Positions 52,356 through 57,003 of a DNA stretch of 64,000 nucleotides are shown here, in pieces. A program made the translations under genes and the position numbers. Position 1 is the first letter of the stretch; each line of letters opens with the position of its first letter. Where the stretch lies: positions 3,805 through 67,804 of the IMG/VR virus record IMGVR_UViG_2929327430_000008. The stretch is one strand, 5' to 3'. The notes beneath the pieces are model-generated. The model saw nothing but the letters and a program-made list of their open reading frames with translations, did no database searches and had not been told where the DNA came from. This DNA is from a virus.

Positions 52356-53072
52356 TCAGGGCGACATTCGAAGCTTCTGACGCTCGCGCCATGATTGCAA
52401 ATGATCGGCAATTGCTGCGTCGGGCGATCCAGACGTCGCCAATGGGTGGACGCTTCCGTCAAAGTCCACGGCGAGGAGCACGGAACGCGGATTTTCATCC
52501 ACCAACTCGTCCGTTTTCCAGTTTTTCTTGAAGGCGTCAAAAAACACCCATCCGAATGGATATTCGCGCGCTTTGCCGGGGACTAAAATAAATTCCGTAC
52601 CAAGCTCGCTCTGCGAGAGATGAATTAACGCCCAGGTTCGAGCCTCGTCGAGGGTGATTTTTTTCAGCGGCAAAAGCTTCTGAGCGTCATCTCTCCACTC
52701 GACAAAACGCCCATCGCGGAAAGTCGTCGCAAAATACCTTCCGCCGGGCTTTCCATAATCCCAGAAATAGGTTTCTCCCCGTTTTCCGCTCGGCTGACCC
52801 AGCCAGAATACGACGGTCGAAATTGCGTCGCCGGGACTCACACGTTCGCGCCAATGGCTCGCCCCTGCCCAATAGCCGCAGTCGTCGAACCAGTAGCATG
52901 CGCGCGTCACGCACCGGGACTCAGCGGACGCAAACTTTCCGCCCATGAATTCGCAAGGAAATTGAGCAACCCCGAGAATGCGACCATAGCGCAATTCCTC
53001 GAAAGCGAGCAACGAGACGGCGACGCTTCCCACCGCCAAAAACACGCGCCTATGTTCACTGAAAAAACGCAT
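52356..53072 (-). CDS. Membrane-anchored protein with C-terminal YrhB/Imm35-like immunity domain
   Basis: N-terminal hydrophobic helix; C-terminal ITLDEAR...EYPFGWVFF...LAVDFDGSVH paralogous to 53209-53589. Confidence 0.7.
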   Translation of the reverse strand: MRFFSEHRRVFLAVGSVAVSLLAFEELRYGRILGVAQFPCEFMGGKFASAESRCVTRACYWFDDCGYWAGASHWRERVSPGDAISTVVFWLGQPSGKRGETYFWDYGKPGGRYFATTFRDGRFVEWRDDAQKLLPLKKITLDEARTWALIHLSQSELGTEFILVPGKAREYPFGWVFFDAFKKNWKTDELVDENPRSVLLAVDFDGSVHPLATSGSPDAAIADHLQSWRERQKLRMSP

Positions 53073-53208
53073 GGGTTCACAGATGCTGAAGTGTCGCCGT
53101 TATAAGCGTTTTCAATTTGGCGACGGCTTCGGGAAATGAGCTGCTCGCTTTCGCAGCGTTATTGGGATCCATTCTCGGATAAAGCTCTCGCGCTTCATCC
53201 TCTGAAAA

Positions 53209-53589
53209 TCATCGCGATTTTTCGTGACGTTCGCGCCACCTTTGAGAATACGCTTCAATCACCGCATCCGGCGATCCTGAAGTCGATAGGGAATGAACGC
53301 TACCGTCAAATTCAACGGCTAGCGGGCCCAATCCTGGAATCTGGTAACGAAAATCTCCTGTCTCAACGTATTTCCGAGAGGCGCCGAAGAAAATCCACCC
53401 GAATGGATATTCGCGCTCTTTTCCCGGAATCAAGAGAATATCTGCGTTCTCACCCGCTCTCGTAAGATATTCCAGCGCCAGCAGACGCGCCTGATTTATC
53501 GTGATTTTTTCCATCGCGAAACTCCGACTGTGGCATGCGAGAAAAAAAAGGCATGCGATGGATACAAATGCGTGTTTTTTGCGCATCAT
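53209..53589 (-). CDS. YrhB/Imm35-like immunity protein
   Basis: ITINQARLLA...EYPFGWIFF.ASRKYVETGD....PGLGPL.V; starts on the toxin stop (ATGA). Confidence 0.78.
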   Translation of the reverse strand: MMRKKHAFVSIACLFFLACHSRSFAMEKITINQARLLALEYLTRAGENADILLIPGKEREYPFGWIFFGASRKYVETGDFRYQIPGLGPLAVEFDGSVHSLSTSGSPDAVIEAYSQRWRERHEKSR

Positions 53590-54221
53590 TTCCGGTCACT
53601 TTTGGGAAGCAAGCCAATGCCAATTACGCTCTTACCATCGGAATTGTATCGAGCATTGGCTGCTTTGGCGCTATAAATGACGCCAGCCTTCTGTCCGTTT
53701 CCCCAATCTTGAGCTTCAACAATACCGACTTTGCCACTGTCATTGCCGATGACGACGACGTGGGGGCCGGCGCCATCGGGGTATCGGATGCCTACGATAG
53801 CCAGCGCACCGTCACCAGCCTGCTTAACCTGACTGTATGCATCATCGATCTTTTGGTCCCATGTTATCTTCGGGTTGAACCGACTTTCAATTTCGTCCCA
53901 AGCGCCATCTCGTCCTGACTGGGCGACCGCGCTGCGATCTTTCCCTCTTGGCCGCGCGGCCACTGCATCAATTACGAACCCGCAATTTTGCTGATCGTTT
54001 TTGGGGTTCACATGGGTTGCCGCGTTTTCTAGATGTGCTCCGGGTCTATTTGTCGAATTATCCGATTGTGGAGAGCGATTTGGTGCGCTCTTGCCCTTTC
54101 CTGGCTTCGCATTGGGCGTTTCTCCGAAGTTTCCACCATTCGACCATCTGCCGTGATCATCCCGAGGTTGATCGTCGCTATATTTGTCGAGCGCGCCGGC
54201 GAAAACCTCTTGCGTGAAAAA
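53586..54221 (-). CDS. Papain-fold (Tox-PL-like) toxin tip of an orphan portal cassette
   Basis: Frame open from the A9T5 run: FFTQEVFAGALDKYSDDQPRDDHGRWS...VNPKNDQQNCG...GPHVVVIGN...IVEAQ, with Cys and His positioned as in papain-fold toxins. Confidence 0.72.
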   Translation of the reverse strand, partial: FFTQEVFAGALDKYSDDQPRDDHGRWSNGGNFGETPNAKPGKGKSAPNRSPQSDNSTNRPGAHLENAATHVNPKNDQQNCGFVIDAVAARPRGKDRSAVAQSGRDGAWDEIESRFNPKITWDQKIDDAYSQVKQAGDGALAIVGIRYPDGAGPHVVVIGNDSGKVGIVEAQDWGNGQKAGVIYSAKAANARYNSDGKSVIGIGLLPKSDRK

Positions 54222-54262
54222 TTTTTTTTTCGTCGTTCGCAGACCAATTCTGCTGCAATTTG

Positions 54263-55036: not shown

Positions 55037-55055
55037 CCTGGACAATTGCGAACGA

Positions 55056-55253
55056 TCACTCGGAAACCGGCAAATTTTTCAAATATGGAATCAAATTCAA
55101 ATCGATTTCGCTTACAATATAAACAAACAACTCGCCAAGTTTTTTCTTCACTTCTTTGTCACCACACTGCTCAGTTAAATACATAGGATATTCAAGATTT
55201 TTAATGATAAGCTCCAACGAGGATATCATCTGATTTGCTTCTTGTTCCGTCAT
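55056..55253 (-). CDS. Putative immunity protein for the portal extension
   Basis: GAGGAGG then ATG at 55253 (MTEQEANQMI); low GC; directly after the extension stop. Confidence 0.6.
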   Translation of the reverse strand: MTEQEANQMISSLELIIKNLEYPMYLTEQCGDKEVKKKLGELFVYIVSEIDLNLIPYLKNLPVSE

Positions 55254-55263
55254 GTTTTCCTCC

Positions 55264-55557
55264 TCAAAAGTCAAAACATCCATGCCGCTCGGCGCAGCTT
55301 CGAATGCAGGCTCGCATCTTGTCGGGACCTCGGAAAAGCCCGTCAACATAATCGTCCAAACATGATGCCCGGCAAATCGGAATCGCGACAATGCATGAAT
55401 CGGTGTGAGCGTCATATTTTGTAGGATCCGACGCGGGTGATTTGACGCTGCTCTCATCGGCGGTCGCAAACCGGCCTCGCTCGTCGTGGCGCTGGTTGTG
55501 TTTATTCAATCCGACACTGACGACTTCGCCTACCCCTCGCTGCAATTCTGCGCGCTT
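55264..55557 (-). CDS. In-frame portal extension beyond the amber stop (HDERGRF motif plus six-Cys tip)
   Basis: ...GTC CTC GTA TAG AAG CGC GCA GAA TTG CAG... gives KRAELQRGVGEVVSVGLNKHNQRHDERGRFATA...CIVAIPICRASC...CIRSCAERHGCFDF*. Confidence 0.65.
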   Translation of the reverse strand, partial: KRAELQRGVGEVVSVGLNKHNQRHDERGRFATADESSVKSPASDPTKYDAHTDSCIVAIPICRASCLDDYVDGLFRGPDKMRACIRSCAERHGCFDF

Positions 55558-57003
55558 CTATACGAGGACCGGTTGTTCGCCGTTATTAGGGGGTTGGGCG
55601 GCGCTCGCTTCGAGCCGCGCGACGCCCTGCCCTGTCACAGTCAGCACGTCGGCGAGCGGATCGTCGGGCAAAATTTCGCCCATGATCTGGGCGGCGCGGC
55701 GGCGGGTCATCATCCCGGAATTGACCAGAGCCACCAGGTTTTCGCGCTGGACGGTCGGGTCGATCGTGGCGTCGTTGCGCCAGGCGAATTCGAGGTTCGG
55801 GGCGCCGAGCTGGATCAGAATGGCGTCGCAGAGGCGTTTGATCCAGGCGAGGATGGGTTGCAGGCCCTCCTCGTTGGACATCTGGCTTTGCGTCTCGCTG
55901 GTCGAGCGGTTCATCTGGTTGATGAACGGCTGCGGCGACACCGAAAAGGCGAAGCAGACGACGCGGGCGATCCATTCGTCGAAGGCGCTTTTCAGCTCCG
56001 GCTCTTTGGTCTGGATGAAGGTTTTCGCGACGCCGCCAGGGACGAATTTGGCGCGCCGGCGCCTCGCGAGATCGCCGTCGAAATAGAGGTCCCAATAGTC
56101 CTGAAAGTTCTTGATCTGGTCGGGGGTCCAACTGTCGGGCACACCGATCAGGCTCTCTGGAATGTTGCCCTCGGTGTAGTAGTTGAGCTGATGCAACTGG
56201 CGCTTCAGGCCGATGTTGACCGTGGCGACGATCTGCTCGACCGGGGAAAAGCCGTAGGCGCGATGACTGCGCACGTTGCGCGGGCGATAGATGATGTCGC
56301 GCGTGGTGTAGTCGACCGCCGGCAGGCCTTTCAAAATTTGCTGGTAGGCGACGGGATAGACTTTTTGGCCGTCCTGCATGAACGGGCGCGGGGTGCGGCC
56401 CCAGAAATCCAGCACCGGTTTGATGGTGGCGCCGTCGAGCGGATGCAGGGCGAGGAGAGTGCCGGCGCGGTCGCGCTCGCACCAGAGGGCCGGCGCGTCG
56501 ATGACGAACAGGTCTTCCAGGATCATGCGCAGCCAGGCGCTCCAGTCGTGGACGCCGTCCGGGCTTTCGAAAAAAGTTTCCGCGCGGGCGATGTTTTCCG
56601 CGTCGGCGTCGCGGCCGGGTTTGGCGCGCAACGTCCAGGTCATGCGCTCGACCTGATCCTTGCGCGTCTCGATGACAAGGCGCAGCAGGTCGTAGGCGTC
56701 GGCGAGTGCGCGGAGGTCGGCGAAGGAAATGGATTCGTAGCCGCGCGCGCGTGTGAGGAGATTGTAGCCGGCCGGGAAATCCCATTGGCGGCCCGCGACG
56801 TCCTCGGGGGCGCCGGGGGCGATGGGGGCGGAAGGGCCGAACCAGTCGTCGGGCGCTTGCGCGCTCGCGCTGGAGCGGGCGGAAAATTCCGCAGGCGAAA
56901 GGGACCAGCGTGGCAAGCCCGCGCCGCGTTCAGTCATGTCAGTCTCCAGGTGGTTTGGTTTGGCGGGCGCGTTCGGCGCGAGGCGATCAGAGTCGCAAGT
57001 CAT
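55558..57003 (-). CDS. Phage portal protein
   Basis: WDFPAGYN, LRLVIETRKDQV, LEDLFVIDAP, LDGATIK, YGFSPVEQI, YYTEGNIP, FDEWIAR. True start may be the ATG at 56937 (MTERG). Confidence 0.93.
   Translation of the reverse strand: MTCDSDRLAPNAPAKPNHLETDMTERGAGLPRWSLSPAEFSARSSASAQAPDDWFGPSAPIAPGAPEDVAGRQWDFPAGYNLLTRARGYESISFADLRALADAYDLLRLVIETRKDQVERMTWTLRAKPGRDADAENIARAETFFESPDGVHDWSAWLRMILEDLFVIDAPALWCERDRAGTLLALHPLDGATIKPVLDFWGRTPRPFMQDGQKVYPVAYQQILKGLPAVDYTTRDIIYRPRNVRSHRAYGFSPVEQIVATVNIGLKRQLHQLNYYTEGNIPESLIGVPDSWTPDQIKNFQDYWDLYFDGDLARRRRAKFVPGGVAKTFIQTKEPELKSAFDEWIARVVCFAFSVSPQPFINQMNRSTSETQSQMSNEEGLQPILAWIKRLCDAILIQLGAPNLEFAWRNDATIDPTVQRENLVALVNSGMMTRRRAAQIMGEILPDDPLADVLTVTGQGVARLEASAAQPPNNGEQPVLV

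Follow-up and report, generated by a model that had tools for sequence, protein, structure and literature searches.

A phage portal gene as the probable fixed front end of a polymorphic toxin–immunity array in a temperate siphovirus-type prophage

Downstream of their main genes, contact-dependent growth inhibition (CDI; CdiA) and Rhs loci carry orphan modules in which a homology block of the main gene is joined to an alternative tip and an immunity gene; VENN and PxxxxDPxGL are junction motifs of the CDI and Rhs type. The general layout of such orphan modules is set out in the text of Zhang et al. 2012 (PMC3482391). For the phage head, the one polymorphic toxin family that we found in print is that of the MuF toxins: as portrayed in the main accounts, a variable C-terminal toxin is borne on a head-module protein of temperate phages and accompanied by small immunity genes, with packaging and co-injection proposed (PMC3482391, PMC5576092, PMC10083569, PMC11699363), and their biological role is described as still open (PMC10083569, PMC11699363). 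PBECR, 2H, InPase, Nudix and ART domains fused to portal domains have, in the passages that deal with them, likewise been read as packaged and injected (PMC5512222, PMC9503650). Here we analyse a stretch of viral DNA of 64,000 nucleotides (hereafter the window; positions 3,805 to 67,804 of IMG/VR record IMGVR_UViG_2929327430_000008) in which a portal gene is followed by toxin-like tips and small genes. We argue that this locus, in a temperate prophage of the siphovirus type, is probably a polymorphic toxin–immunity array for which the portal gene serves as the fixed front end. A literature search, confined to the articles themselves, found no published description of a portal-anchored toxin/immunity array with orphans.

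The locus resembles each of these systems in part. Glutamine deamidase and RNase tips occur both in the portal system and in MuF polymorphic toxins (Zhang et al. 2012; Jamet et al. 2017, PMC5576092; Apk2 and Bxa, PMC10083569 and PMC11699363), and the motif that joins the window's carriers to their tips also lies between MuF and PBECR3 in a related portal–MuF fusion (locus L062). The locus differs from MuF systems in that the carrier is the essential dodecameric portal itself; in that the window portal and the scanned head-module open reading frames (ORFs) gave no match to the MuF families of Pfam (PF04233, PF06152), to which Jamet et al. add MuF3 and MuF4; and in the prominence of displaced orphans with a carrier homology block, the word ‘orphan’ being absent from the article text of Jamet et al. 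(PMC5576092). More distant portals of the family carry PF04233. As with the portal-fused ‘polyvalent protein’ effectors, the window's portal belongs to a family with many portal–MuF fusions; however, the fusions described in those articles, so far as their text goes, are fixed anti-defence or takeover enzymes, without swappable tips, cognate immunity genes or portal 3' orphans. Apparent exchange and displacement by recombination in a conserved block, and immunity kept after toxin loss, are shared with CDI and Rhs, and a tip family (PF18431) is shared with CDI. In contrast to those systems, the carrier is a virion structural protein rather than a secreted filament or type VI secretion system cargo, and the junction motif is of the QPRDxxGRW/HPRD type rather than VENN or PxxxxDPxGL.

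The array under study spans 52356–55557 on the minus strand, as do all the features described in this paragraph and the next. Its conserved carrier, the portal gene (481 amino acids (aa); 55558–57003; PF04860, E = 8.7e-17), ends at a single TAG (55558–55560), and the portal frame stays open for a further 97 codons, through KHNQRHDERGRF, into a six-Cys tip. This extension (tip 1; 55264–55557) consists of a linker, an HDERGRF junction motif (55468–55488) and a helical hairpin with the six Cys residues, and is closed by a TGA (55264–55266). Behind it lies a 65-aa gene (55056–55253), the candidate cognate immunity gene, whose ATG is preceded at 6 nucleotides by the ribosome-binding sequence GAGGAGG and whose product matched no Pfam family. 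The interrupted frame, its six-Cys end and a small gene with a strong ribosome-binding site had all been described in a first-pass annotation made from the letters of the window alone, and all proved to be as described.

Farther downstream, 54263–54632 is a repeat of the portal 3' end, 93.8% identical to 55619–55983 over 370 columns with five gaps; it has no start codon, and its 5' edge also lies in another frame. We regard it as the homology block of a displaced cassette. It runs, by way of an A9T5 run in the linker of cassette 2 (54217–54230), which shifts the tip out of frame by one base, toward KYSDDQPRDDHGRW and a Gln_amidase domain (papain-fold toxin 1; PF15644, E = 2.5e-6, 29.0 bits against a cut-off of 24.1). 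The tip 2 reading frame (53586–54245) comprises a linker, a QPRDDHGRW motif (54144–54170) and this domain, whose translation contains ..QQNCGF.. and ..GPHVVV.., the NC...H signature given for papain-fold toxin 1 in a table of Zhang et al. 2012 (PMC3482391). The tip 2 stop is overlapped by the start of an Imm35-family immunity gene (126 aa; 53209–53589; PF15567, E = 1e-8), behind which lies a 238-aa fused immunity-like gene (52356–53072) with a weak Imm35 match (E = 0.054). The C-terminal half of the latter is a paralogue of the Imm35 gene (49% identity); its N-terminal half resembles a gene behind another tip in locus L003, the window's 52684–52986 matching L003 5715–6017 at the DNA level, within the L003 ORF 5605–6045. 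Between the two cassettes lie an orphan tip fragment (54881–55045), which has no portal homology block, and a 73-aa gene paired with it (54659–54880), again a candidate immunity gene. The first-pass annotation had seen here a start-less copy leading to a papain-fold tip with its immunity gene, and an orphan tip/immunity pair in between. Copy, tip and immunity gene stand, but the copy is out of frame with the tip; the pair is present, but its tip is only the C-terminal ~54 codons. A promoter and terminator scan of 52200–57200 was uninformative, with two promoter-like sites against 2.0 expected and one terminator-like site against 6.9 expected.

The case that the portal is a carrier rests on its relatives. 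Portal homologues numbered 3178 with E ≤ 0.001 among 8000 scored candidates; extensions were counted in the best 120 of them, of which 107 align through the last portal block, the 13 without a full anchor match being excluded. C-terminal continuations reach at least 90 residues in 44 of the 107, 40–89 residues in 12 and fewer than 40 in 51. These figures speak against the possibility, envisaged at the outset, that homologous portals never carry variable C-terminal domains. The junction motif pattern is matched in 34 of the 44 long extensions, and a variant of it was recognized by eye in the other 10. Genome loci could be compared in 34 cases (many metagenome bins, together with Rhodoblastus acidophilus, R. 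sphagnicola and Methylocystis): the motif is followed in frame by a tip of at least 100 residues in 14, 10 are tip-less with tails of 12–31 residues, and in five (L010, L025, L030, L031, L033) a motif-bearing tip lies behind a stop or frameshift or is cut at the motif; the remainder are a frameshifted locus (L009), an ambiguous one (L017) and three that could not be judged. An uninterrupted fusion with a tip of 132 residues is seen, for example, in the cultured strain R. sphagnicola DSM 16996 (L003). Long in-frame portal extensions are also found in 25 of 79 IMG/VR viral loci. The earlier proposal that the portal carries variable C-terminal tips is thus borne out by long in-frame tips in many relatives.

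In this lineage (Rhodoblastus, Methylocystis, Beijerinckiaceae) the portal either stops 12–32 residues after ..TGQGV or runs into a tip, and the continuation consists of a disordered linker, the conserved junction motif and an exchangeable tip. The portal part is 58–98% identical across homologues, and similarity of the portals does not extend to what they carry: the portals of the window and of R. acidophilus DSM 137 bear different tips at 96.5% DNA identity, and at least six unrelated tips occur on portals 77–80% identical to that of the window. The window's own portal, as ended by the TAG, has a tail of 23 residues past ..VTG; since this is within the range of naturally tip-less portals, the truncated protein should work. 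A model of the DSM 137 portal with its Gln_amidase tip (P0037), used solely for this remark because its mean pLDDT (predicted local distance difference test) is 59, suggests that a low-confidence linker (residues 385–462) connects the portal part with a tip folded as alpha/beta. The nearest cultured phages, two Brevundimonas phages at ~50% identity, were matched only to residue 442 and are uninformative on tips. A conserved carrier, unrelated tips, a predicted immunity gene downstream and orphan cassettes, four features of a polymorphic toxin system sensu Zhang et al. 2012, are all present.

A Pfam scan of 51 tip-bearing sequences recovered recognized polymorphic-toxin families, in line with the early suggestion that homologous portals end in toxin domains: Tox-REase-5 in five, RNAse_A_bac (bacterial CdiA-CT RNase A, PF18431) in two, and Gln_amidase, Ribonuclease (barnase-type), CHAP, Tox-REase-2 and DUF6883 once each. 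That putative immunity genes follow the tips was also upheld, each tip type having its own downstream gene. Gln_amidase is followed by Imm35 and DUF6883 by DUF4926, as predicted partners. The six-Cys tip has the 65-aa gene behind it not only in the window but also in L006 (82% identity) and L037 (98.5%), and in L037 the gene is intact though the tip is broken. A gene of 162–173 aa lies behind one Cys-rich tip in four loci (L011, L013, L014 and L016), with weak TPR matches below the cut-off; L009, whose junction is frameshifted, has a related gene at the corresponding place. In the viral contig L052 the frame of a displaced cassette (5504–6724) spans both DUF6883 (residues 179–285) and its partner DUF4926 (339–396); this single frame is either a toxin–immunity fusion or a missed stop.

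Tip 1 is fused to the portal without a stop in L006 (protein P0008). This is the only carrier of tip 1 among longer proteins (one of 56 candidates), which is weak evidence that the tip is rare. Over 51 codons, its core differs between the window and L006 by 11 synonymous and five non-synonymous codons, and this ratio argues that tip 1 evolved as coding sequence. The AF2 model of tip 1 predicts a disordered linker followed by a two-helix hairpin (helices 35–56 and 63–76), the only confident part (block-mean pLDDT 89–92 over residues 41–80), which carries CX6CX3C and CX3C. Its CX3C...CX3C spacing presumably resembles that of disulfide-stapled hairpins, with no fold assigned. The best score for tip 1 in the ESM Atlas was 0.79, below lead level.

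Displaced cassettes recur among the relatives. At least eight of the 34 genome loci have a clear second copy of the portal 3' end farther downstream, three more have short remnants, and extra copies occur in eight or nine of the 79 viral loci, one of the nine being probably spurious. Second anchor hits in L015 and L046 (45% identity, another frame, hisC-like region) and in L017 (37%) were treated as spurious, and the two anchor hits in L020 as one copy split by a frameshift. The downstream copies are start-less and joined to other tips.

The first-pass annotation had suggested that tips are exchanged by recombination in the portal 3' end, and strains of one species do differ as cassette replacement at the repeat predicts. 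DSM 137 (locus L001) matches 55619–57003 of the window at 96.5% and then directly 53076–54632 at 97.2%; the intervening ~1 kb (54632–55619), which carries tip 1, is missing. Because the one match runs straight into the other, the DSM 137 portal is fused to the cassette that is an orphan in the window, and tip 2 is there in frame with the portal (P0037). Contigs of runs X3 and X7 (same organism label, other studies) join 54410 to 55772, and the 54263–54632 block is the portal's own 3' end in L001, X3 and X7 alike. Only in the portal-fused form of the cassette does the linker run keep the frame (A8GT4 in DSM 137); it is out of frame where the cassette is an orphan (A9T5, +1, in the window; A7GT4, −1, in L037); it is short by one base in X3 and X7 and by two in X2. 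The orphan fragment 54881–55045 points to a second source: it shares 74% identity with the last part of an L010 tip ORF (3017–3307) that belongs to another array, behind a homologue of a 338-aa protein of the window with an HPRD motif (see below). The 73-aa gene is 54% identical to the gene after that homologous tip (L010 3320–3541), and is intact in L037 (97.3%). Since the fragment pair 54659–55045 thus has a homologue in the other array of L010, cassettes appear to move between two carriers as well.

The junction motif takes the forms K[FY]xxxQPRDxxGR[WF], HDERGRF and WDExxHPR..GRF. A six-frame translation of the window contains it four times, with three of these occurrences at toxin junctions; this is more than expected by chance, as 20 shuffles of the window gave 0–2 occurrences. 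In L062 the motif (residue 351) lies between MuF (225–334) and PBECR3 (374–477), and in L111 it follows MuF. Judged by its positions, the motif marks the point at which cargo joins its carrier, whether this is the portal, MuF or the 338-aa protein. Motifs of the HPRDxxG[KR]F type are present in further proteins of phage heads. Word searches found no ‘HPR’ string in the article text of PMC5512222 and no ‘motif’ in that of PMC5576092. In the wider portal family, 138 of 149 fetched representatives (from the best 150 of the 50% clusters) are at least 550 aa long, a count that overstates the frequency of extensions in so far as cluster representatives may be the longest members. Portal–MuF fusions make up 32 of 55 sampled representatives of this family, and some also carry Acb1, ADP-ribosyltransferase, InPase, Zeta toxin or PBECR1. 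These 55 come from the first 61 new representatives, leaving out P0150, P0164, P0169, P0170, P0171 and P0179 (N-terminal fusion, short, very long or multi-stretch); P0055 was scanned in the 51-sequence set instead. The sub-lineage of the window looks like a MuF-less relative of the portal–MuF–effector architecture that has adopted toxin/immunity cassettes.

The fourth occurrence of the motif in the window, HPRGLQSLGGDGRF at 3172 on the minus strand (ORF 1846–3606), is in the tail-end region and may be chance or another cargo junction. A second toxin array (57087–60431) lies between terminase and portal. The 338-aa protein at its head (59415–60431, minus strand), with cassettes behind it, carries WDESLHPRDPKGRF; a start-less copy of its linker (58454–58951) lies downstream, joined to another tip. 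The motif recurs in homologues of the 338-aa protein in L001, L010 and L014.

The first-pass annotation had further proposed that the tip is gated by recoding at the TAG, and this we could not uphold. The window reads ..GAA CAA CCG GTC CTC GTA TAG AAG where L006, the only relative with an uninterrupted tip 1, reads ..GAA CAG CCG GTC ATT GCA TCG AAG; L037, an independent IMG/VR contig 97.9% identical to the window, also has TCG at this position. The X1 contig covering 54603–55768 shows no other letters at the TAG. Recoding is unsupported because the stop is not conserved, and no gate is needed because many portals carry uninterrupted tips. Other stops are found nearby. In L037, tip 1 has a TAA in place of CAA five codons upstream of the TAG site and a TGA at the first Cys codon, and in DSM 137 a TAG replaces CAG (L001 7957–7959) 34 codons before the end of the fused Gln_amidase tip. 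Three near-identical sequences (window, L037, DSM 137) thus have nonsense codons at four different sites, with TAG, TAA and TGA all represented, and with their immunity genes intact and the Imm35 protein 100% identical in all three. From this comparison we conclude that the TAG is a strain-specific, derived TCG-to-TAG nonsense change of a Ser codon, an ordinary mutation, and that the pattern of stops beside intact immunity genes is one of toxin loss with immunity retained. In DSM 142 a frame break (L004 7629) lies in a Gln_amidase-like tip next to an intact immunity gene.

The comparisons indicate how the array changes. A new cassette recombines into the final ~370 bp of the portal gene, and the previous tip is pushed downstream together with its immunity gene, an orphan lacking a start. 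The Gln_amidase/Imm35 cassette, which in DSM 137 has kept its fusion to the portal, was displaced in the window by a six-Cys tip that arrived with its 65-aa gene. This newer tip was subsequently silenced by the change of TCG to TAG, leaving a portal of tip-less length and intact immunity genes. The C-terminus of the portal (the crown) faces the capsid interior in solved portal structures, so that each head would hold as many as twelve tethered tips. Their release may occur at the junction motif or close to it, possibly through the prohead protease, after which they would be ejected along with the DNA into a new cell, while the immunity genes would protect the producer and cells with the same prophage. 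Delivery of tips by particles we infer from this arrangement.

Several other explanations of the locus have to be weighed. There is next to no chance that the duplicate portal 3' end is an artefact of assembly, as had been allowed for at the outset. The short-read (Logan) contigs of X1 do break at the repeat borders, yet the repeat pieces have a depth of 656–676, about 1.5 times the 405–438 of the unique flanks, and the unique 1166-base piece between the repeats has flank-like depth. X1 is probably the source sample and so not independent of the window, but L037 has the same two-copy layout; moreover the copies differ at 6% of positions and the architecture recurs in many loci. Programmed read-through of the TAG, by which leaky termination would by design place the tip on a few portal subunits of each dodecamer, would account for the frame open for 97 codons after a single stop, for purifying selection on the tip core in comparison with L006, and for the single in-frame stop before the motif in L030. 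We consider it very improbable. The selection seen against L006 mostly predates the TAG, the stop gives way to TCG in the two relatives named above, and three stop types at four sites are what decay would produce, while the common uninterrupted fusions imply that twelve tips per portal are tolerated. No tRNA gene lies within the window, so that the element carries no suppressor tRNA of its own; the genome is represented here by a single contig of 67.8 kb. Low-level natural leakage at the TAG is conceivable, and nothing points to design.

A different function for the tips is easier to entertain, although we think it unlikely: they might be injected host-takeover or anti-defence effectors that aid the phage's own infection, the small genes protecting the producer during assembly only. 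Domains fused to portals and MuF are read in this way in the relevant passages of Iyer et al. 2017 (PMC5512222) and of PMC9503650, and the portal–MuF fusions in the wider family, some with Acb1 (against the cyclic oligonucleotide-based antiphage signalling system, CBASS), ADP-ribosyltransferase, InPase or PBECR, would suit it. In this sub-lineage, however, the tips are interbacterial polymorphic-toxin domains (CdiA-type RNase A, Tox-REase-5 and -2, Gln_amidase), and Imm35, stacked immunity genes and displaced orphans are typical of strain competition and unexpected for a fixed takeover function. We give equally little credence as to read-through to the idea that the cassettes are never delivered, being toxin–antitoxin-like selfish or abortive-infection modules that gather where an essential gene ends in a recombination hot spot. 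Immunity genes that stay intact while toxins decay, and many disrupted junctions, would fit this; nevertheless, the toxins, lacking start codons of their own, would be translated only as portal fusions, and a conserved junction motif separates each tip from the carrier. The position of this motif between MuF and PBECR3 in L062 suggests a role tied to the head interior.

The reading that we favour, a polymorphic toxin–immunity array headed by the portal, has evidence to answer too. No toxin family recognized by Pfam was found in 39 of the 51 tip-bearing sequences, many of these 39 being small Cys-rich modules. Tip 1 matched no Pfam family; a Foldseek search of its model against the PDB gave no matches with E ≤ 0.001 (best 4.5), and a wide VIA-align search gave a best Z of 5.2, to generic helical hairpins within background. 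To leave the head, a tethered tip would first have to be cut, and the presence of tips in particles, their cleavage and their toxicity are predictions. All three R. acidophilus-type sequences have a broken tip next to the portal, and junctions are disrupted in ~6 of the 34 further loci, some of the frameshifts in metagenome bins being possible sequencing errors; in strains with broken tips the system is decaying rather than in use. All of these points weigh against the array as a working weapon, and they are reflected in our calling it probable.

The prophage context of the array is complete. The head module includes an S24 repressor gene (62624–63361), the large terminase gene (60472–61815), a prohead protease gene (50175–51161) and the capsid gene (48633–50162), all on the minus strand, and siphovirus/GTA-type (gene transfer agent) tail genes occupy 8291–17570. 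Between the toxin array and the protease gene, on the opposite strand to the head module, sits a hisC-like class I/II aminotransferase gene (51176–52318, plus strand; PF00155, E = 1e-58), found in the same place in L001, L003, L004, L006 and L037 (77–97% DNA identity). The capsid gene is separated from the tail genes by a block (30244–48026) that resembles a satellite or second element inserted in the prophage, containing an integrase gene (46815–48026) and encoding a RepA-like AAA protein, an SF2 helicase and a D5-type helicase, as well as a 1228-aa protein with a cell-wall hydrolase domain and an Sf6-type small terminase (30244–30825).

If the portal is also a carrier, carriage of toxins in the phage head would be independent of MuF, and would make use of an essential structural protein whose fixed copy number of twelve gives the cargo a defined stoichiometry and position. 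The shared junction motif is a candidate site of cleavage or hand-over, and so offers a handle on how head-internal cargo is released. Three near-identical strains show the turnover of such an array, with a cassette gained, the old one displaced, the toxin lost by nonsense mutation and immunity kept. For annotation, unexplained C-terminal extensions of portals and ‘hypothetical’ genes behind them should be taken for toxin/immunity cassettes. More tentatively, and with the balance of probability against it, the motif may be a general head-cargo signal, a cut or hand-over site on carriers of the portal, MuF or 338-aa type between which cassettes move freely. Particles of these Hyphomicrobiales might then inject up to twelve strain-specific toxins per virion, serving as kin-discriminating weapons as well as viruses.

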